Source: Octopus sinensis
Lineage: Eukaryota
Assembly (NCBI RefSeq): GCF_006345805.1
Contig: NC_043003.1
Location: forward strand, 68,882,001-68,946,000
DNA: 64,000 nt
Reading direction: 5' to 3'
Made by a program: the position numbers and the translations under genes
Notes under the pieces: model-generated
The model's input: the letters and a program-made list of their open reading frames with translations, nothing else
What the model was told of the DNA's origin: nothing
Databases searched by the model: none
Shown here: piece by piece, positions 2,754-40,894 of the stretch
How positions within the stretch are numbered: position 1 is the first letter of the stretch
How the letters are laid out: every line of letters starts with the position of its first letter

Positions 2754-3180
2754 AATGAGCTATTCACAGTAACATCGATCATGAAAGCAGTTTATCATGG
2801 CCGAATAGCCGGATTACTACCTCCCACTTTGAAGGGTATGCGTTTGAAATCCAGGAACAGGAAATATTAACCAAGTACCTGATTCACACAAGGGATAGAG
2901 ATGCAGGAAAAGCAGTAGAAAATGACAACCGATGCAGGCTTTGTGGAGTTCACACTGAAGATATCACCCACATCACAAGCAGTTGTCAGAAAATATATGT
3001 GAGCAGGTCAGGATATATAACTATATGCATGAGAATACATATATAAAACATACAAATCTGCACACATACGTACATACATACAAAAATACCCTGTCGTTAA
3101 AGTTGAAATTCCAATGAAAGAGCCTTGGACCTAGGTTAGAAACCAGTTCTTGAAATTACCTAAATAACGACATACATACA
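2754..3180 (+). mobile_element. Dong/R4-clade LINE fragment, internally deleted
   Basis: TSHFEGYAFEIQEQEI...CRLCGVHTEDITHITSSC (CCHC knuckle) joined directly to the same 3' UTR and (CATA)n. Confidence 0.8.
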
Positions 3181-8814: not shown

Positions 8815-9927
8815 ATATAAAATATATTTCTGTGTGTATACGTGCGTTTCTATATGAATGTAGATCTTTATTACGGTTATAGTTATGTGTTTCAGTTACA
8901 CAGTAGCCCACCTGAATCTTTTCTCGTCTAATTACTTCGAATTCAAGATTATATCAGCAGTTACATCCATGTCTCGTTTTGTTATTTTCATTTTCTCTTT
9001 CTTTTGGCCATTTTTTCGGTGGGGTGTTTCTCTCTTGTTTTTGTTTTCTTAAAAAACGTTTTTCTAATTTCGGTTTCAATATTTATTCCATTTTAAAATT
9101 CTTTAATCTATTTTCGGTTATTTCCCAATGTTTTAAGTAAGACATTTTTCACTTCTTTACGCTGTTTCTTCGAATATCTTCCCAGCTATTCGAAGAGGAG
9201 AGGAAGTTGTTTACAATGTATAAGGCTTGACGCAGTAAAAAGAAACGGAACAAAAAGTCAAAACCATACCTATTCTTTTTTTTCTTTATTTTTTCACTTT
9301 CTTGAAGTCGGAGACAAAATTTTTGTTTTTACCATTTTATTTTGTATATTTTGGCTTTGTATTTGGTATGTTTTCTTCGGCTTTTCTCTTATTGATGTTA
9401 CAACATTCGTCGTACGACTAAGGTTGTTGTTGCTGCGATTGCTTTTCATTTTTGTTCCTTCATGCTGTCTCCAGTTTGTCGCGTTTTTCATTCTTATTCT
9501 TTTGATATACTGAATCCTTTTGAATATTACACTTCAACTATTTTTTTCCGGCAACATTTTATACCATAGACACACTCCCAAATACAAACAAACACAAGCA
9601 CACACAAACACACACTCACATTTTGTCCGATTAAATGAATACCAAAACCACGTATTTATTCACTAGTATACATAGAAAACACACCCGCTGACACAAACAG
9701 GAAAACAGATTCCTGCATACACACATATCATATGTACGTTCGTGCCTGTGTATGTATGTAAATACATATATGCGGGTGTATGTGTGCGACTATTAATATA
9801 GAAATTTATACCATATACACATGTATATATACGTGTATACGTGTGTCTACGTGTATGCTGGTATACATGCACATACATATAAATGTAAAAACACACACAT
9901 TGACACGTACACAATTATATATGCTTG

Positions 9928-9969
<42 letters not shown>

Positions 9970-9991
9970 CAAGCATACATAATTGTGTACG

Positions 9992-10725
9992 TGTTTGTGT
10001 CTGCCTTCCAATTGCTGTTTTTACTGAGATCTCCCTTTTTAGTAGAAGAAATAGCTATAACCCTTTGACTGCTATTTCTAAATTCGGTATGTGGTAAGGC
10101 AATTCGTTGCTAAACCCTTTATTGCTTAGTATTACTTAAATTTTCCTCGAATGAGGCTTTTACATGCCGAAGACTACTTGGTGTAATTGATAATTATTCC
10201 AAATTAATTAATTTCACCCTTCATTATTACGGATAACCATATTTTATCTCAGTAGATGACCACAGCATCTTGTTTTGGCTACACGCGGGTGGGAAGGGGC
10301 TGGTGACACAATCTTTTCATTCACACTTTGAATTTGGTGATACTAGTTGCGGATTCTAGCTCGCTCTGATACTGAGTTGAGTTGGTGCCTTCTAGTATCT
10401 CAAAATTCAATATATAATCATTTATGATTATAGTATTCTACGCTGAAGAGAAAAGAAGTTTGGGTAAGGTAGAATTATTTAATATTTAATTCTTATGCTT
10501 TCCTAAAAACTTGATTTCGAAACGTGCGTCCGTAGATAACTTAAAATTGTATGATAGATTGCCGTCTATTCATTCTCTCTTACCTGTTTGTGTCTGCCTT
10601 CCAATTGCTGTTTTTACTGAGATCTCCCTTTTTAGTAGAAGAAATAGCTATAACCCTTTGACTGCTATTTCTAAATTCGGTATGTGGTAAGGCAATTCGT
10701 TGCTAAACCCTTTATTGCTTAGTAT
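9992..10725 (+). mobile_element. Retrozyme-like/Penelope pLTR-like element: 593-nt period, 141-bp direct terminal repeat, one HHR
   Basis: 9992-10132 and 10585-10725 read identical. No ORF, multiple internal hairpins, ends in (TA)n. Confidence 0.8.
10437..10536 (+). ncRNA. Type I hammerhead ribozyme with extended stem II
   Basis: tctacg|CTGAAGA|gaaa...(~69-nt hairpin)...tttc|GAAA|cgtgcg|TC|cgtaga. All core nucleotides intact; predicted cleavage after C10530. Confidence 0.85.
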
Positions 10726-10793
10726 ATATATATATATATATATAATATATATATATTACATTGTATATACATGTATACTTATATAAATATATA

Positions 10794-10832
<39 letters not shown>

Positions 10833-10856
10833 TTGTATATACATGTATACTTATAT

Positions 10857-10908
<52 letters not shown>

Positions 10909-11489: not shown

Positions 11490-12078
11490 TATCGGTTTCA
11501 CACATTTGACTGCGGCCATGCTGGAGCACCGCCTTTAGTCGAACAATTCGACCCCCAGGAATTATTCTTTGCAAGCCTAGTAATTATCCTATCGGACACT
11601 TTTGCCGAACCGCTAAGTTACGGGGACGGAAACACACCAACATTGGTAGTCAATCGATGGGGTGGGGACAAACACAGACACACAAACATGTATACATCTA
11701 TCTATATATATATATATAGTTGGAATTCACAAATAAAAACAAAAGATGAAGACGGGTATGCAAACAACAAACAGGTGTATATATTTTAACGCTCGGGAAG
11801 GTGAGAAAGTCTTTTACGTTTCGATCCGACGCTCTTCAACAGAAAGGAACATGAGAAACTAAACAGAGAGAGAATTAAAAAAAAAACTTTAGTGTCTAGC
11901 GATCGATCATAGCGATGGCTGGACAGTGATGGTCATGTACCAGATCCACTCACAAGGCTTTGGTCGGCCCGAGACTATAGTAGAAGAAACTCGCCAAAGT
12001 TAACACGCAATGGGACTGAACCCGGAATCATGTGGTTGGGATGCAAGTTTCTTACCACACGCCAACACCTGCGCCTGT
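11490..12078 (-). mobile_element. Family-A SINE split at its central (TA)n by a Penelope-like fragment (~11718-11935)
   Basis: SINE tail 11490-11700 and head 11935-12078. The insert carries the HHR-like ttGAAGAgcgtcggatcGAAAcgTA on the minus strand (11809-11847). Confidence 0.7.
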
Positions 12079-15414: not shown

Positions 15415-16695
15415 TTGGGTTGTCCATAAAGTACGTGCCGATTTATAATAGCTTACCTATCGACTTATTTTAGAATTTGGTTGAGTCCATAAAATAGAAT
15501 TTGACTACACCTCCATTTAGAGCACAGTTTAAGCTATTTTTTCGTGGAAGAAGGTTTATGTTCCTATAACCTGTGTTTATTCTGTATCCCTTTAAAATGG
15601 AAGATAAGAAAGTTCATTTTCGGCACTTGATGCTTTTCTTTTTCCGTAAAGGGAAAAATGCCTCACAAGCAACCAAAGAAATATTCGCAGTTTAAGGTGA
15701 TGTTTCTTTATCCGAAAGAACTGTACGGAAGTGGTTTGCAAGGTTCCGAGCTAGAGATTGTAGCCTTATTGATAAAGAACGATCAGGCAGTCCATCCGCT
15801 ACAGATGATGACCAAATCAAGTCATTAATTGAGAATAACCCATATTACACAACCCGAGAATTGGCAGAAAGCCTTAACCTATCAAAATCCGTCGTTCATG
15901 AGCACCTGGTAAAGCTTGGGTACACAAATCGCTACAATGTTTGGGTACCACATGAGTTGAGTGAGAAGAACGTTTTGGATCGCATTTCCATCTGTGATTC
16001 GCTTTATAAACGGAATGAAAACGCACCTTTTATAAAGCAAAGTGTGACAGGTGATGAGAAATGGATTATCTACCGAAATGTTCAGTGAAAGCGATCCTGG
16101 AGTAAGCAACATGAGCCACACTTAGCCACCCCAAAAGCGGGTCTGAACCCTAAAAAGTCTTGCTTTGTGTCTGGTGGGATAAGAAAGGAATTATGTACTA
16201 TGAGCTTCTTCCTAGTAACCAGACAATTAATTCTGAGAAATACTGCACACAACTGGACGAGTTAAAAGCAGCAATTCAAGAGAAACGTCCAGAATTGGCC
16301 AACAGGAAGGGTGTTGTTTTCTAACATGATAGTGCAAGACCGCACGTTTCTTTGGGAACCAGACAAAAATTGTTGCAGCTCGGCTGGGATGTGTTGCCTC
16401 CCTCCAAATTCACCAGATATTGCTCCTTCGGATTTCCACTTGTTCAGGTCTCTGCAAAATAGTCTTAATGGTAAAAGTTTCAATTCCTTGGATGACGTAA
16501 AAAATTACCTTGATGAATTCTTTGACATGACACTACCTCAATTCTGCGAAGAGGGTATTTTCAAGTTAAAGGAAAGATGGAGATGCATTGTGCAACAAAA
16601 TGGTTCTTATTTGGTTGATTGAAAATGTAATGGCAAGTATTTATTGACCTTTTTCTTTCCTTTAAAAATCGGCATGAACTTTCCGGACAACCCAA
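15415..16695 (+). mobile_element. Full-length mariner transposon (mellifera-subfamily-like), inactive
   Basis: TA|ttgggttgtccataaagtacgtgccgattt ... aaatcggcatgaactttccggacaacccaa|TA; 1281 bp. Confidence 0.95.
15597..16622 (+). pseudogene. Mariner DD34D transposase with stops and frameshifts
   Basis: MEDKKVHFRHLMLFFFRKGKNASQA; WVPHEL; VTGDEKW; HDSARPH; [22 protein letters not shown]. Confidence 0.95.
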
Positions 16696-17199: not shown

Positions 17200-17853
17200 A
17201 TAAATTTGATATCGATTTAATTAACATCAATTTAACACCAGTGGTCTAGAATATTGAAGTCTGAAGATTCAGTAAGTTGTATTATATACATATGAGAGGG
17301 ATTACCATTATATGGACAATCATTATGCTGGAAGTAGATCCGCTATTGTTTTACCACTAAGAAATGTTCTCAAGAAAAATTTAGCAAACAACAGAACGTA
17401 AGTGAGCAAGATAAATGAAAAGTAACACTAAAATTCGTTCTGTAACCGGCAAAGGCCACTGCAGTAAATTATTTTCTGCAGTATTATTTTCCGGTAATTT
17501 AGCGCGCCAAAACGAGGACTTTGGAAAAATAACGGCAAGTGTTACAGGTAGAACTATGTACAAGTCTGACCTCGTGCAGACGTCATCGTATATAGTTCTG
17601 CAAATTATATTTGTATGGACGGTCACACTGAAGATCTACGGACAAATTGCGTAAGTAAAATTACGTAATTCTGTTAGTAGTGAAACATGTATGTGAATAA
17701 TCTATATTTTTGCTACTTTTCATTTGGCTTGCTCCCTTACGTTCTGGTGTTTGCTAAATTTTTCTTGAGAACATTTCTCTTAGTGAGAACATTTCTTAGT
17801 GGATATAATTCTAGCATAAGGGTTGTCCACATAGTGGTCATCCCTCTCATTTG

Positions 17854-17857
<4 letters not shown>
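17200..17857. repeat. Fold-back palindrome of the 1-200 family with a MITE in its loop
   Basis: Arm 17285-17340 (atgagagggattaccattatatggacaatcattatgctgg) pairs with 17801-17857. The extension resembles 1-72. Confidence 0.7.
17355..17801. mobile_element. MITE with ~75-bp TIRs starting CACTA (CMC/EnSpm-like)
   Basis: cactaagaaatgttctcaagaaaaatttagcaaacaacagaacgtaagtgagcaag / cttgctcccttacgttctggtgtttgctaaattttcttgagaacatttc..ttagtg; no clear TSD. Confidence 0.7.
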
Positions 17858-17890
<33 letters not shown>

Positions 17891-18524: not shown

Positions 18525-19916
18525 CATATGTGTGCGTGTGTGCATGTGGGTGCTTGCTCGCGTGTGTGTTAGTGTGCGTGTATGTGTCAGTATTATTTGT
18601 GAAAAATACTTTTTCCGTGTAGCGTGCTAACTTAGAAAATTCTTACTTGAAATAAGCAGTAAGCTCTAAAATCTATTATGGATGTGTTCTTAAATATAAT
18701 GAAAAAAGACGCTTGTTAAATTATTTATGAAAGGAATGGTTTCTGTACAAATTTGAATTTTCCCTGTCACAAACATTTTTCTTCTCGAGGAGCTTCGAAT
18801 TGAAAATATGGCTGTTGATTTAATCATATAGTTTTCTTCCATGTTTTAGCCTTCAATATTTATTTCTGTTCGAAATATTGCATCAACATTTGATTTTTTT
18901 AAAGTAAGAAGTAATTGAGAATATGAAATTCTTCCAACCGGAATATGTCTCTCGTGAAATATTTTTGTCAAAACAATATTTTATTCAAGATATGTATTAT
19001 TCGTTCATTCTACATGACAGTTAAAACTGATGAGATGGTCTCAAAACGATTTGGACCGAGTTATGCAGTTCTGGATATCCCAAAAAAAAAACGGAATCTG
19101 GTGTATTTTACCATCTTTTTAATATCAGTATGTTGAATCCCGTATAATACATCAAGCAATGGAATATTGTGGAATTCTCAGCAAATACCGAATCAATAAC
19201 TACTTTTTCATTCCCACTAATGAAACTACAAAAGGTAAAAAAAGATGGACCTGCAAAAGGTCGGCAAATCACACGAAAGTATACAATACAAACGGATATT
19301 TGGCTTATACAGATTTGAATAGATTTAGCGTAGTTTTGTTTATTGTTCACATGCTTTGAACGTTATTGTTCTGCTCCTCACATATGCACATTTTCCTCCT
19401 TATCCAATAATTTCCCTCATATTATTTGTGCGTGTTGTTCTCCTTACACCTACTCAGAAGAAATTGGCACGACTTCGCCGATGTAATAACCGCACAAACA
19501 CGCGTGCGCGCGCACAACTGTGTGGCGGAGGAAGGGGGAGTATGTTAGTGAGCGTGTTTATGTTTGTGAGTGTGTATGCGTGTGCTAGTGTGTATTTGTG
19601 TTTGTGCGTAATAACAGTGTTTATCAGCGTACACTAAAACATTTTTTTTTATGAATTCGCACTGCTGATATTAGCGCATATATCCGTAGGATTTATAAGG
19701 CGTCAAACACGGTAAATACAACTGATTTGTTTGCAAGTGCCTTGAGAAGGTTCAAAGCAATGAGGGCCTTGAGGTTATAATTGGTTTTAATATTAGTTTA
19801 ATAAAAGGTTGCCCGACTAAAACTAGTCACAGACAGATCCTATTTCTAACAGCTAGCATTGAAGACGTCAATACGTCACAGCATAAGCTGAAAATCAGAT
19901 TCCATCTCAAGTCTAT

Positions 19917-19948
<32 letters not shown>

Positions 19949-19972
19949 CATACATACATACATACATACATC

Positions 19973-20470
19973 ATCAAAGCAGTGTATCATGGAGCAATAA
20001 CCAGATTACTACTTGCCACTTTGAAGAGCATACGTTTGCAATCCAGGAAATATCAACCAAATACCCGATGCACAAAAGAGATAGAAATGCAGGAAAAGCA
20101 GTAAAATGTGATAACCGATGCAGACTTTGTGGAGTTAACACCGAAGATATCACCCACATCATAAACAGTTGTCCAAAAATGTCATCACGGTATCATCTAC
20201 CGATGAGACATGATGTTGTAGCTAGGGCATTTTTTGATGAAGTCTGTCGGAAGAATAACCCCGAGGACAAAGAAATAAGAAATCAGTATGGTTGAAGTTA
20301 TAGCCACACATAAAACAAAACATACAAATATGCGCATATACATACATACACACAAACAAAAATACCCTGTTGTTGATGTTGAATTTCCAAGGAAGGAGCC
20401 ATAGATCTATGTTAGGAACCGGCTCTTTCCCTATTGGCAAGAAGTCTTGAAATAAAGCTGAATAATGACA
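19973..20470 (+). mobile_element. Dong/R4-clade LINE fragment flanked by (TACA)n on both sides
   Basis: ORF 20068-20295 CRLCGVNTEDITHIINSCPKMSSRYHLPMRHDVVAR (CCHC plus RH motif); same 3' UTR as the 2271-2752 copy. Confidence 0.85.
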
Positions 20471-21399: not shown

Positions 21400-22246
21400 T
21401 CTGTTATTCTTTTAATTGTTTCATGGTGGAGCACCGCCTTCAGTCGACCGCAGTACTTATTCTTTGTAAGCATAGAACTTATTCTATCGGCCTGCTTTGC
21501 CGAAACGCCAAGTTACGGAGACGTAAACATACCACCATCAGTTGTCAAGCGATGTTGTGGGGACAAACACAGACACAAACATATACACATACATAGATAC
21601 ATATATATATATATAAATGGATGAATGAATTATTCTTTGTTTACCGTTAACAGGGAAAATTCAATAAACAGTTACAAGGGTAGCAAAATGCACGCAAGTA
21701 ACACATACATAGATACATATATATGTATATATAAATGGATGAATGAATTATCCTTTGTTTACCGTTAACAGGGAAAATTCAATAAACGGTTACTAGGGTA
21801 GCAAAATACACGCAAGTAACACAAATGAAGCGACCTATTCAAAGATTGAAACTCCAGGTTAATGTGCAGTAATTTGTGTAGTATAAGTAAATAAATGGAG
21901 TCATCGTAATTGCTATAATGTCTTGTTGAGATGGGTTCTCTTTCTTTCCTGATGAGAAGATTGCATTTTACACCGTTTATTCCTTTGGAATAAAACCAAT
22001 GTTATCTTCGAAACATATTTCGAAAGTAAAAGAATTTTAATAACATCTTCGTTCAGCTCCATTTATTTACTTATATGTATATATATACGACGGGCTTCTC
22101 TCAGTTTCCGTCTACCAAATCCACTCGCAAAGCTTTGGTCAACCCAGGGCTTTAGTGGAAGACACCTACCCAAGGTGCCACGCAGTGGGATTAAACCCGG
22201 AACCATATGGTTGGTAAGCAAGCTACTTACCACACAGTCACTCCTG
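21400..22246 (-). mobile_element. Family-A SINE split at its central microsatellite by an HHR element (~21615-22075)
   Basis: Tail 21400-21590, head 22087-22246. Confidence 0.75.
21944..22026 (+). ncRNA. Type I hammerhead ribozyme with extended stem II
   Basis: ctttc|CTGATGA|gaagat..tttattcc-ttt-ggaataaa..atcttc|GAAA|catatt|TC|gaaag. Stem III has one mismatch; enclosed by a perfect 19-bp stem 21882-21900/22057-22075. Confidence 0.8.
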
Positions 22247-22305
22247 AGTCCACAGTAATAATAATGATACTAATAATAATAATAATGATAATAATAATAA
22301 TAATA

Positions 22306-22341
<36 letters not shown>

Positions 22342-22966
22342 GTTGTTGTTGTTTGTAGTTCTTAGGTGCACTACAGGATGTATTCACATATATATTAGAA
22401 ATTATATGTGTGTGCGTATGTGTGTGTATATGTGTGGGATAAGGGCGTGAGTGTGTGACTCTCTGTGTTTGTTTGTTTATATATATAATGTGTGTATGTG
22501 TGTATGTGAATATATATATATTTTTTTATGATATGATATGTCATGTATAATATATGATATATGATGTATATTCGGCCTTTACATGTCATGAAAAATATAT
22601 CCGAAACATTTTGAAAAATGACGGTGTTTCGGTGCCTGTGCGTGTGGGTGAGTGTGTGGAAGCATATTTCTGTGTCCGCGTGCATGCGTGAGCGCGTATG
22701 CACATGCACATATGTGCGTGCATGTGTGTGTACGTATGCATGTCTGTGTGTGTGTGTGTGTGTTTACGTGTGTGCGGAGGGGGGGGCGCACTTGTGTAGT
22801 ATAGAAGCCATAACGTTTTGATTTTTTTCTAAATAAAAATTCCGTTTCCTATCGTGTTTCTGTTCTTTTTGATCGAAAGAGAACAAAAATAAACGTTGCA
22901 CGTTTGATGTTGAAATCCTATTGTTACGGCCGCACGTTTATTTGAAGGAAATACATATCCACAATG

Positions 22967-23373: not shown

Positions 23374-24697
23374 GCCAACCATTAGGTTTATCTCTCGGGG
23401 GATCAAATATGCAACGGTGTGGTTGCTATTTGATACCCCCGAAGAGGCTCGCAGATTCCTGGGCCAGCTACTGGGGGGCAGGAAAATATTGTTCCTTCCC
23501 ATTTATTGTGGAAAGAAGTTGACGAGGGCTTGGGTCTGCGGTTTGTCACCCAGAATTGAGCCCACGTGGATAGGGGATTCTATCCGCCGGGGTCTTGATG
23601 GCAACAGTATGTGAACATTTTGCCTGCGGCTGATTGGGAGGGGTCAAAAGCTGTTTTGAACCTATAGACCCAATCAGCTGTAAATCGGGTATTTCCAGAT
23701 TTTTTTAAGAATGGCCGGGTCTAGGTATCCGTTGATGCTTGAGGGATGCCCCCCACCCAAGTGTCACCTGTGCCTGGAACCGGGCCATATCAAAAAGAAC
23801 TGTCCTAAGGACCAAAATAAGGTCCTGGAGCAGTTGATAAAGATACCGCTCCCTGCTCCCTCTTTGGGGGGAGAGAAGGCGGAAGTCGAGGATGTGGAAA
23901 CCTCCTCAAAAAAAGGAAGAAAACGAAAAGTGGGCAACAATGGTTCCCCATCGAAGGATCCGAGGGTTGCAGGAGGGAGGGAGGATCTGCTGGACAAAGC
24001 AGAGAAACTCCACCCTCCCGTGGCTCAAAGGAAAAAAAAACAAAAAAGAAAATTGGGATATCGACGGCGGTTTGTGACACACTGCCGGCGTGTCCCGAAG
24101 CATCTTTGTTGGGAGTTGTGCCACCAAAGATGGAACTGTACACCCGCCCCTCCATGATGCAGAGGAGGAATTTGTTGTCCTCTTCTATAAGGGAGGAACA
24201 GTGGAATGCTTTGTCAAGAAGCTTAAAGTGAAGGGCCGAAGGGAGGGGATTCTGTCCTGCACAGAGGACCCTGACTAGCTTTCGATCTGTTCAGGATAAT
24301 GGAGTCCTTCCCCGAGGCTATCTTCAGATTTATGCTACATTGGCTCGGCTTGGCGCCGGCCAGGTGTTTAGCTGAGTGAGAAGTCTGGTTGGGCAGGAAG
24401 ACTATTTCATTGATTCATAAATGGACTTGTGTAAGAGGTTTATTGCCTCAAAATGGCTTTGTATGTCGTAAATGTAAGATATCTGTTGCCTCCTTAATGT
24501 GTTTTTGTAAGAGGTTTGTTGCCTCAAATATGTATTTATAAAGAACAATGTGCTCTGGTAAACAGTAATCTGTGGGCGTTTCTGTTGCCCTCATTATTAT
24601 CATATCATCTATCAACTCATCTCAATTTCTCCTTGTCCAGCCCACAGCCTCCTTTCTTTGTAAGGCACTTGTGGTCAATTTAATGAATAGAAGACGG
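23374..24697 (+). mobile_element. Tx1/L1-type ORF1 (gag-like) element without ORF2, inserted in a family-A SINE head
   Basis: FISRGIKYATVWLLFDTPEEA...LPIYCGKK...LEGCPPPKCHLCLEPGHIKKNCP (CX2CX4HX4C). The SINE starts at 23331-23373 and resumes at ~24698. Confidence 0.75.
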
Positions 24698-34260: not shown

Positions 34261-35946
34261 TGTTTCTTTATTAACCACACATGGCTGCACACAGACGGGG
34301 CAGATTACAAAGTAGAGCTTTTCTTTATGGGGAGAAAAGAGGAAGAAAAAAAAGAGTGGGGTAGGTTTTCGATCAAAAGGGATCGTAAATGTGAGAGAAT
34401 AAAAAGAAAGAAAAGAAAGAAGCGACCAATAGGGATCGTGTATTAGAGAAATTCCATGATGTAAAGTGTAAAGGGGGAAGCAGATAGGGTTTATCCGTGG
34501 AGAGAAAAACCTACAGAAAAGACCACGATAACCTCGTTCAATAATGTCACCTATTAACACATTTGTTTGCAAGTAGGTAACCCTCTGTTTAAAATTTTTC
34601 CGGGTTCATAGGATTATGCTCAAGGTAGCTTCGTCATTCATACGTGCCATCCTTGCTACATTCACCCATCTTTTTTTTTAAAACATTCGCAAAGACAAAA
34701 CTTGCCTCTACTCTCACTTTCCTTTTCAAGTGATACTTGAAGAAGTTGATGAGAGATTGACCAGAGAGGAAAGTGTTTGTCTCCGTTCCTTTCAGACGCG
34801 TCTACAAGATACATTCTTTCGCCATGGCCACAAGAATAATGAAAATAGTTCTTCCTTCCCGTTTGAAGGAAGCAGGCGTGACATTATTGACGATAGACTC
34901 GGCTGATAAACCGACTCGTCCCACGCGTGACAGCAGTCATTCGACTGCTCTTGTGGCTTTTGTTGTGCAGTAGTTGGACACTTCTTTTTCAAATGTGTCT
35001 TGCTTCCGCACAGATAGCAACGTGGTCGCCTGCCCTCTACCACTACATAGAGTTTGTAGCCTTCTGGCAGTTCTATAGTGGTGGGTATATTTTCTCTTGT
35101 TGTTTCATCCAATTGAAGGAGTAATTGGAGTGATTTTCCCACCCGGTTTTGCTGTTCTAGAACGGCGATTTCAAGAATGTTTGTCTCTACCATTTCAAAG
35201 CAGATGGCAGAGACTAACCATTGTATTTCTACTTTAGGTGGTACATTTTTTATTGTGATTTTCGTCACCCTCTGGCCTAGATAAGTTGGTATCATCACCA
35301 AGTCATATGTATGCAGATCCAATGTGGAAAATCGTTTCGCTAGATTTTCATTGTAGCAACGTACTTGGACTGTGCCAAACTTATGCCACCGACTAACGTA
35401 TTCCTTCGAATCCCATACAGGGCGATGGCATTTTTCGATTTTTTTCTGCGGTGCACTTTCTGGTCGTCTTGTATTCTTATTGATAACCCTGCATATTATT
35501 GTTTTTTGTTGTGTGTGTATTTTCCACGAGGAGTTGTGGAATGTGGAGATGCAAATTATATCCTTCTTTGGTGAGAAGTGCCTTTGTGTTGTTTATTTCT
35601 TGTGCGGTGAATTTGATAATTGTTCTCTTTTGTTTTATCGCTTCCGCAAAGTTTGTTTTCTTTTTGGTGGTGTTAGGGGCAGAGGAGTTAGTTGTAGCAG
35701 TTGAAGTCGTGGTACTAGTCTTGATGTTGACGGTGCTGTCTTCGGTGGGCGGCTTTGTGCTGATTTCGTTGTTGTTGTTGTTGGTAGTGATGGTAGTGGT
35801 GGTACTGGCATTCATGTTTGCGTCTGTATTCGTTTGTTTTGAAATCCCTTTCTCCGTCCTTCTTTCATCGACAAGTGGTGTAGGGAGTGGGGTAAAATCT
35901 AAGTTAATGTCTTTGGTGGCGGCGATGGTGAATGGCCTTGCGATGT
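34261..35946 (-). mobile_element. Tx1-like non-LTR element, ORF1 plus ORF2 C-terminal stub, within (GATA)n
   Basis: ORF1 with IPTYLGQRVTKITIKNVPP...VEGRRPRCYLCGSKTHLKKKC; stub FIILVAMAKECIL*TRLKG...KRWVNVARM; AATAAA then (TATC)n. Confidence 0.8.
34960..35940 (-). pseudogene. Gag-like ORF1 with CCHC zinc knuckle, frameshifted
   Basis: ORFs 35477-36202 (T/N-rich N-terminus, NFAEAIK) and 34792-35322. Confidence 0.75.
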
Positions 35947-36659: not shown

Positions 36660-37698
36660 TGTGTATATTGCTACAACACACACACATTCACACTCACACA
36701 CATACACACACACATTCACACTCACACACATACACACACACACTCACACTCACGCACATACACACGCACGCACATGTCGCGCTAGTGTAAATATAAATAT
36801 ATATATATATATATGCATATATGTCTATACATATATGTATATACATACATACACAAGGAGAAAGATGAGAGGCGATAGCGATAGGCACAGAATCCATATA
36901 AAATGCATATAGAAACATAGATAACTACCTAAGTGTGCATGTGTGTGTGTATGTATGTATGTGTAAATATATATATATATAGATGAGTGCATGCGTATAT
37001 ATATTTACACAGGCGCGACATGTGTGTGTGTATATATATATAATATATATATATATATTTCTACGTACAGGAGTGGCTGTGTGGTGAGAAACTTGCTTCC
37101 CAACCACATGGTTCCGGGTTCAGTCCAACTGCGTGGCACCTTGGGCTAGTGTCTCCTACTATAGCCTCGGACTGGCCAAAGATTTGTGAGTGGATATGGT
37201 AGGCGGAAACTGAAAAAAGCCCGTGTGTGTGTGTTTAAGTTTGTGTGTCTGTGTTTCTTTCCCCCTCCCTAACATCGCTTGACAGCCGATGGTGGTGTGT
37301 TTACGGCCCCGTAACCCAGTGGTTCGGCAAAAGAGATCCGATAGAATAAGTAACAGGCTTGCCAGGAATAAGTCCTGGGGTCGATTTGCTCGATTAAAGG
37401 AGCTACTCCAGCATGGCCGCAGCCAAATGACTGCAACAAAAGAATATCTATATGTATATATATTTACATGTGCATATGTAATGTGTGTGTGCGTGTGTGT
37501 GTGTGCGTGCGTGTGTGTGTGTGCGCGCGTGTGTGCGTGTGTGTGTGTATTAAGAGAACTAAAATTAGATATAATCTTAGGTTTATATGGGGATATGTAT
37601 TCGATATATGTATATATGAAAATATTATATACAAACAATATAAGACCAGTATGCTATATACTAATACATATGTATATATATATAAATATTTACGTGTG

Positions 37699-40108: not shown

Positions 40109-40894
40109 CTGGGTCATCCCATAAATAATTACTTCAAATTTTTGCCACAAGGGCAACTTGGGAGAGGTGGGATGAGTCGATTACATCAACCCCAGTGTTC
40201 AACTGGTACTTATTTTATCGAACCCGAAAGGATGAAAGGCAAAGTCGACCTCGGTGGAATTTGAACTCAGAACAAAGCGACGGTGAAATACCGCTAAGCA
40301 TTTCGTGCAGGGTGCTAACGATTCTGCCAGCTCCCCCCTTTGGTCATCCGATAAATAATGCCGGTTTTTCAAAAGTCGGAGGTGGACAAGCTAAACTATC
40401 TGCATCAACTTGCTATAGAAGCAGGTAGTATTTTTACCTCATACTTATTCTTAGTGCAAGTTTTGAAGAGTGCAGTTGGATTTAACAGTTATGTTTTCAA
40501 AGCTGTAACGGAGGTGACAAAGGAGCATATTCGGCATATTTTGTTTTATGAGTTCAATAAAGGCAACAAAGCAACGGAAAGTGCGAGGAATATTAATGTA
40601 GTATATGGGGATCGGGCAATAAGCGTAAGCCAATGTCAACAATGGTTCCAGAAATTCGGAGCTGGAAACTACAACCTGAAAGAAAAACCTCGTCCTGGAA
40701 GATCTGTAGAGCTCGACGAGACCCAGGTGGAACAAAATCCTGTTGTGACTGTTGAGGAACCAGCATAGAGGCTTCGATTTGGTCATTCAACCACTCATCG
40801 ACATCTGCGTACCATTGGAAAAGTCAACAAATTGGGTCAATGGCTTCCTCACAAACTCTCTATGCTCGGCCACATTACATATGGGATGACCCCA
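40109..40894 (+). mobile_element. Internally deleted mariner
   Basis: TIRs ctgggtcatcccataaataatg / cattacatatgggatgacccca; transposase N-terminus EVTKEHIRHILFYEFNKG...QWFQKF..RPGR..QWLPHKL, then the 3' TIR. Confidence 0.85.
40130..40339 (-). mobile_element. Family-B SINE inserted in the mariner 5' TIR
   Basis: TSD-like duplication ggtcatcccataaataat / ggtcatccgataaataat. Confidence 0.85.

Follow-up and report, generated by a model that had tools for sequence, protein, structure and literature searches.

A 593-nt non-coding unit with a long-armed type I hammerhead motif in an octopus (TA)n tract suggests a young, Penelope-dependent retrozyme family

The element described here lies in a window of 64,000 nucleotides of Octopus sinensis DNA and consists of 1.24 copies of a 593-nt unit, 734 nt in total. 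The best explanation for its structure, with a probability of roughly three in four, is non-autonomous, Penelope-dependent retrotransposition of a non-LTR retrozyme that was inserted into (TA)n. As judged from contigs of public sequencing runs, the element is a member of a young multi-copy non-autonomous family and not a single-locus accident. The coordinates of its features are collected in Table 1.

Table 1 Features of the element and of its insertion site, with positions counted from the first nucleotide of the window.
Feature	Position	Strand	Basis
Fold-back (inverted duplication) of host flank with pivot (TA)n 9932–9965; likely insertion scar	9903–9994	.	Self-complementarity; TA-tract control
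Left-hand 141-nt repeat: additional 0.24 unit with truncated 5' end	9992–10132	+	Exact match to 10585–10725
Predicted multi-hairpin domain across the unit junction: two hairpins, helix 10083–10094/10160–10171 (12 bp), hairpin 10180–10218	10020–10218	+	Folds, summed depth
One full 593-nt period, 35% GC, non-coding	10133–10725	+	Self-match, ORF check; multi-copy in runs
Two internal hairpins (10328–10410 and 10413–10432)	10328–10432	+	Predicted fold
Canonical type I hammerhead motif with long helix II arm 10450–10518	10437–10536	+	Motif scan, Rfam; architecture as described in the available text of PMC4209133
Right-hand 141-nt repeat, which closes the insertion at 3'; last 3 bases common with the TA target	10585–10725	+	Exact match
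(TA)n-rich right flank with 40-nt direct duplication	10723–10905	.	Repeat analysis

The exact 141-nt terminal repeat, the 593-nt period and the copy number of about 1.24 given in the original prediction were all confirmed by self-comparison of the window. The two end segments match with 0 mismatches at an offset of 593, and mismatches are found immediately outside both ends of the redundancy. BLAST of the element against the 64-kb window returned no further copy. The GC content of the unit is below the 45–50% ceiling of retrozymes. The prediction that the element has no ORF also held: the longest stop-free frame on the circularised unit is 66 codons, and no look-alike was found for the 36-codon ATG frame (recognition 1251). 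The repeats are separated by 452 nt without any ORF, and thus without one for reverse transcriptase (RT) and GIY-YIG. The window contains 0 tRNA genes, and the unit has no B box and one loose A-box match, so it does not qualify as a tRNA-derived SINE. A strong splice-donor-like word on the − strand (10576–10586) lies beside the position of this copy's 5' end, probably by coincidence.

The wider family was searched for in assembled contigs of public sequencing runs using 62 words sampled from the element. Twenty of the 24 runs listed (12 studies, 8 organism labels) contained 65–92% of these words; the top-scoring run may be the source of the window itself. Contigs of four of the 20 positive runs were aligned to one period (10133–10725), namely X2 and X6, guessed to be DNA, and X12 and X16, guessed to be RNA. 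Variant contigs on the 593-nt period numbered 1482 in X2, 1192 in X6, 43 in X12 and 35 in X16. Those of X2 were distributed over identities of 99% and above (444), 95–99% (445), 90–95% (462) and below 90% (131), and those of X6 likewise range from 99% and above to below 90%. A single-copy locus, which would have spoken against the original prediction, is excluded by this abundance of variant contigs in several runs. The junction from one unit to the next (10725 to 10133) was present in 11 contigs of X2, 1 of X12 and 2 of X16; in X6 it is absent from the junction listing, yet one record runs across it. One of the two X16 contigs is likely a 282-nt contig with 20 differences, a variant about 90% alike. 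Since this junction recurs in three of the four runs compared, the 593-nt period is a trait of the family. None of the contigs listed spans a whole unit, and the junction contigs taken by themselves would fit a circle or the structure of this locus alike.

The ends of family members vary. Among the 23 of 131 loose ends listed, one X12 contig passes from the unit to (TA)n at 10228, two X2 contigs join it from (TA)n near 10595–10612, and further ends enter at 10634, 10647, 10657 and 10676 or exit at 10697 and 10711, several of them (at 10634–10676 and 10711) joined to other sequence. Sister families or an autonomous partner may share the domain formed by 10613–10725 and 10133–10212. Copies with fixed ends always joined to an ORF, an outcome named beforehand as contrary to the retrozyme reading, are unlikely, but the short contigs leave some room for them. 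Summed depth, which does not equal copy number, was 1.1 × 10^5 in X2 at 10213–10512, 2.9 × 10^5 at 10513–10612, 7.2 × 10^5 at 10613–10712 and 4.9 × 10^5 at 10153–10212, with a coverage hole at 10226–10236. The rise towards 10613–10712 and the high level up to 10212 fit either an RT start in that region with 5' truncation, or a domain common to other families. At position 10567 this copy carries a nearly private letter (92–100% other in all four runs), which makes it young but not identical to the family. At 10655/10062 both redundant ends carry a minority letter (12% in X2), and therefore both stem from one source. Contigs and sequence together support the original description of the element as multi-copy, variably ended, young, non-coding, retrozyme-like and probably cephalopod.

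A single hammerhead was found by the scan of both strands of the window. It contains a 6-bp stem I (10437–10442/10531–10536), the core segments CUGAAGA (10443–10449) and GAAA (10519–10522), a 4-bp stem II (10450–10453/10515–10518) that includes the G10.1–C11.1 pair and closes a 69-nt arm, and a helix III of 1–2 bp with a 4-nt loop. GUC is present at the cut site, and cleavage is predicted after C10530. In their sizes of 6, 4 and 1–2 bp, and in the 4-nt loop, the helices agree with the canonical type I motif of metazoans, which is that of retrozymes, and most animal autonomous pLTRs carry the minimal motif, according to the accessible text of PMC4209133 and PMC7229834. The core pattern, which was written from this very locus, gave one match in the window and none in 100 shuffles. 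The Rfam check that had been proposed gave a mixed result: RF00163 (Hammerhead_1) matches exactly 10437–10536, but with 21.2 bits (E 0.027) against a gathering score of 34, and the Rfam scan of the window at gathering level returned nothing. The sub-threshold score is probably due to the long helix II arm. Short-spacer hammerhead descriptors use 7–17 nt for core motifs (PMC8557442, in the parts available). It is suggested that long helix II arms evade both Rfam cut-offs and such descriptors, and that families of this kind may be undercounted. A metagenome scan with an 18-nt hammerhead motif returned two loci only, L001 3329–3346 and L002 2999–3016, which were rejected as chance matches with likeness limited to 19–21 nt and no upstream hammerhead core. 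The L001 contig is GC-rich and prokaryote-like, and the L002 contig is intron-rich and eukaryote-like.

The type I hammerhead had been called perfect, which is correct for the full canonical motif but not for the lowest-energy fold of this copy, where the core is mispaired. In that predicted fold core C10443 pairs with G10526 at a probability of 0.8, and the active hammerhead fold is predicted to cost +2.1 kcal/mol. Position 10526 is A in the family majority in three of the four runs compared (63% in X2, 96% in X6 and 84% in X12; 33% in X16), and with A at this position the pair with C10443 is lost and loop III becomes a perfect palindrome. Dimeric hammerheads require a palindromic loop III, and the G10526 of this copy keeps loop III self-pairing via G–U (cofold −8.8 kcal/mol). 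Having one hammerhead only, the locus cannot itself release a monomer. When nine predicted Xenopus retrozyme dimers were tested in vitro, eight did not cleave and one did, as reported in the available text of bioRxiv 10.64898/2026.07.22.740005.

The three strong hairpins noted originally are all present in the predicted fold (10640–10648/10664–10672, 10328–10346/10392–10410 and 10413–10420/10425–10432). The domain across the unit junction is the deepest-covered part of the family by summed depth and may represent a candidate RT-recognition or start region. Circular folding gave −156.6 kcal/mol for the + strand and −120.7 kcal/mol for the − strand, corresponding to z scores of −6.9 and −2.7 (60 shuffles each); the linear z score was −4.6. 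The predicted circle is branched and 66% paired. The tile containing the element ranks fifth among 36 window tiles of similar GC (−163 versus a mean of −139.5, s.d. 20), the top three of which contain long inverted repeats. Sparing of the predicted helices by family variants was not significant (12 breaks versus 14.6 expected, P 0.18, for 40 of 67 variants).

Both junctions of the insertion were legible to a certain extent. On the left, the fold-back of the host flank is 92 nt long, and its arms reach 29 nt past the TA tract into unique host sequence, where a single mismatch (9919/9978) interrupts their complementarity. The end of the right arm coincides with the first 3 bases of the element, a microhomology that matches at 6 of 7 positions if extended. 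This fold-back contains 9 G/C pairs, compared with at most 2 in the other 66 TA tracts, and is unique among the 67 TA tracts of the window. It is likely a scar of the insertion. Snap-back junctions on cDNA or nearby target DNA have been described for R2 insertions (PMC11371274, in the portion available), and the 5' inversions of Penelope-like elements described in the accessible part of PMC8557442 are copies of the element; a literature search for host-derived 5' inversions of Penelope-like elements returned no relevant report. Rfam microRNA-family matches at 9900–9997 were rejected, as they arise from the TA fold-back. On the right, the element merges with (TA)n over three shared bases, in line with the predicted run into (TA)n, which was seen at 10723–10744. 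The true 3' end is therefore ambiguous over 10722–10725, and a target duplication is illegible because the target consists of TA repeats. The direct duplication in the TA-rich right flank (10758–10797 and 10830–10869) has a period of 72, and a 12-nt word of it recurs at 9891 in the left flank.

Several other repeats were identified in the window, which is rich in microsatellites. A LINE fragment at 19726–20292 is 68% identical to an Octopus bimaculoides protein, the best of 4 matches, which with the microsatellite load points to a likely octopod host on the strength of a transposon fragment; this fragment and one at 2759–3043 gave weak zf-RVT matches. LINE fragments at 23684–24154 and 34795–35592 are zinc-knuckle ORF1-like pieces, and a homologue search with the latter gave 2 matches. 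Transposase fragments of Tc1 type and of mariner type (Mos1 HTH) are located at 15696–16085 and 40355–40765, respectively. Long MITE-like inverted repeats (75 nt at 89% and 63 nt at 84%) are present at 17283–17859, a 51-bp hairpin (94% complementary, 30-nt loop) at 71–202, a 118-nt tandem duplication (95%) at 21585–21823 and a (TAA)n/(ATT)n palindrome at 22252–22359. Two further segments, at 11508–11690 and at about 37283–37450, the second judged from ORF translations, we take to be probable copies of an abundant octopus SINE-like repeat.

Under Penelope-dependent retrotransposition, tandem or over-unit copies would be transcribed, and self-cleavage of their + strand RNA is predicted after C10530, probably with the aid of dimers that pair through the palindromic helix III. 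The resulting monomers would be circularised by a host ligase. A TA-targeting Penelope-like RT/endonuclease would then nick the microsatellite, and reverse transcription would start inside the unit at about 10722–10725. Synthesis proceeding backwards through the intact cleavage site, past its own start, and stopping after 734 nt would generate the exact 141-nt redundancy. At the left junction, a free TA end may have folded back, been extended by about 29 nt on the host flank and been joined to the cDNA via microhomology. The cleaved linear monomer was not the template, because the copy spans the cleavage site and exceeds one unit. Within this reading, a ligated circle and an uncleaved multimer are about evenly matched as templates; the single source of the two redundant ends fits circle or multimer alike.

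Published work is cited here as far as its text was available. Circles are described in coral, mussel and axolotl, and over-unit cDNA made by a Penelope-like RT has been proposed for them (PMC7229834); the same retrozyme/Penelope model is given in PMC7761336. In vitro data exist for a single Penelope-like protein, which nicks AT-rich DNA, initiates inside its own RNA downstream of the hammerhead and acts mostly on uncleaved RNA (PMC11167929). TA-targeting Penelope-like families in Octopus include Naiad_Obim, Naiad_Ovul, Naiad_Omin and Hydra-1_Obim (PMC8557442 supplement). Cephalopod Naiads are described as long inactive (PMC8557442), and Penelope families are expanded in coleoids (PMC8967140). 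No likeness was evident when the unit was compared by eye with three octopus Naiads at their 3' ends (for Naiad_Obim, the end was assigned from the order of the file) and with the hammerhead row of Hydra-1_Obim, as given in the available material.

The alternative that survives best, although improbable, is that the locus is debris of an autonomous Penelope-like element, in which two 5'-truncated 3'-end/pLTR copies of 141 and 593 nt stand in partial tandem and no independent 593-nt unit exists. Penelope-like elements typically show partial tandems, 5' truncation and TA targeting (PMC8557442, in the parts available), the gradient of summed depth fits, and the loose ends at 10634–10676 and 10711 that continue into other sequence imply that other families share the 3' domain. 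A junction formed in this manner would be expected to be private, whereas that from 10725 to 10133 is shared by many contigs from two organism labels, probably also by a diverged variant, and the depth over it remains high. Aligned sequence that runs on into unlike sequence made up a share of 0 in both DNA-guessed runs, a weak argument, since contigs end where the assembly branches. The hammerhead is of the canonical and not the minimal form, no ORF remnant is present in the unit, and a Pfam scan of 40 of the 181 window ORFs gave no match to RT or GIY-YIG.

Spread at the DNA level is less probable still. An excised DNA circle of a hammerhead satellite could have undergone rolling-circle copying, or served as a patch, where the fragile TA tract was broken, and the over-unit copy, the microhomology at both ends and the fold-back of the flank fit this explanation too, being compatible with polymerase-theta-type repair. 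Retrozyme multimers are also stated to behave as satellites in the accessible text of bioRxiv 10.64898/2026.07.22.740005. Against this, other family ends also abut (TA)n, depth is polar along the unit, as in target-primed reverse transcription, and R2 insertions, too, have documented snap-back junctions (PMC11371274, in the portion available).

It is very unlikely that the element represents a circular RNA of viroid-like or HDV-like type that replicates and also has integrated DNA copies. Its size, its branched self-pairing and the hammerhead would suit such an agent, and RNA-to-RNA copying has been suggested for retrozymes in the literature available, but the − strand of the unit contains no hammerhead core, Rfam detected no other ribozyme family in the unit at E values up to 10, an ORF is absent, very many DNA variants occur in the DNA-guessed runs, and the 18-nt motif gave 0 matches in viral contigs. 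The least credible explanation, a miniature element of the TRIM or plant-type LTR retrozyme kind whose 141-nt LTRs would be the two identical short direct repeats starting with TG around the non-coding middle, is already largely refuted by repeats without a CA end, by the lack of any primer-binding site, + strand polypurine tract or 4–5 bp duplication in the sequence of the element, by a type I hammerhead outside the repeats where plant LTR retrozymes have type III within their LTRs, and by family ends that disregard the repeat borders.

Octopus is a host with heavy RNA editing, and ADAR prefers A after U or A and disfavours A after G. One X12 loose end before 10476, in the helix II arm, carries 6 A>G changes and 1 A>T change within 30 nt relative to the majority type of its own run (binomial P 4 × 10^-4 for the A>G changes versus the DNA-run spectrum, in a post hoc test). 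The changed A's follow U or A, and two A's after G are unchanged. Position 10454 shows A>G in 82% of depth in X16 and 0.07% in X2. The run-wide A>G excess of RNA-guessed over DNA-guessed runs was not significant (25 of 75 versus 7 of 35 places, Fisher P 0.11). The X12 contig may thus be read as a hint of + strand expression and ADAR editing, and as a hint only, since it stands alone, lacks matched DNA and comes with a run-wide P value of 0.11. An extended form of the Penelope-dependent retrozyme reading is accordingly put forward as speculative, with the odds clearly against it: the element would belong to an active octopus-wide retrozyme, missed by standard hammerhead searches for its 69-nt arm, that moves as an ADAR-hyper-edited 593-nt circle reverse-transcribed round into TA microsatellites. 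If this were true, single insertions with the same private A>G changes in their two redundant ends would prove directly, from the genome, that animal retrozymes move via circular RNA.

The closest known systems are the metazoan non-LTR retrozymes (Cervera and de la Pena 2020), with which, as far as they are described in the available text of PMC7229834, the octopus unit shares a non-coding low-GC sequence, a canonical type I hammerhead, many copies, the lack of LTR, PBS and PPT, and a predicted circle that pairs with itself; the model published for them has over-unit cDNA made from a circle. Their validated circles are 170–400 nt, compared with the 593-nt unit here, which in addition has a 69-nt helix II arm. 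They form dimer-to-multimer arrays, whereas the octopus locus is a dispersed 1.24-mer in (TA)n. Vertebrate non-LTR retrozymes (Li, Clavereau and Pollet 2026, bioRxiv 10.64898/2026.07.22.740005) have consensus units of 51–972 bp, a range that includes 593. The claim that the octopus unit is longer than known animal retrozymes consequently stands for the validated circles but not for these consensus units. Dispersed monomer-type copies and a proposed dependence on Penelope-like elements, or descent from Penelope pLTRs, are reported there too, and both the size and the Penelope link thus have precedents. The 'active' class of vertebrate retrozymes needs two hammerhead-bearing units, and the octopus locus has one; in the part of that preprint available, no mollusc is named among its 35 species.

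The pLTRs of EN+ Penelope elements (Poseidon PAc of Anolis, PMC11167929; the Naiad and Hydra clades including Hydra-1_Obim, PMC8557442) likewise show, in the material available, partial tandems, a 3' end downstream of the hammerhead, an internal RT start, AT or (TA)n targets and 5' truncation. The octopus unit differs from them in having no ORF and a canonical instead of a minimal hammerhead, and its 5' inversion is made of host DNA while theirs is an inverted copy of the element. Chlamys elements such as MRC1 are also short non-autonomous Penelope-dependent pLTR-like partial tandems and were once mistaken for LTR elements; unlike the octopus unit, they are green algal and most are without a hammerhead (PMC8557442, in the parts available). 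The literature search found no cephalopod retrozyme or octopus hammerhead repeat, and the family is probably undescribed in octopus; Repbase, Dfam and some supplements, which were outside the scope of the search, may contain it. Retrozymes and their Penelope dependence have already been described, while the step that turns an RNA circle into a new insertion exists as a model so far. Taken alone, the locus is one more transposon copy, but a young abundant family with dispersed over-unit copies and clear junction scars in a heavily RNA-editing host would be a good test system for that step. By its sequence-level features, the element is an added example of the known animal retrozymes and not a new kind of element.
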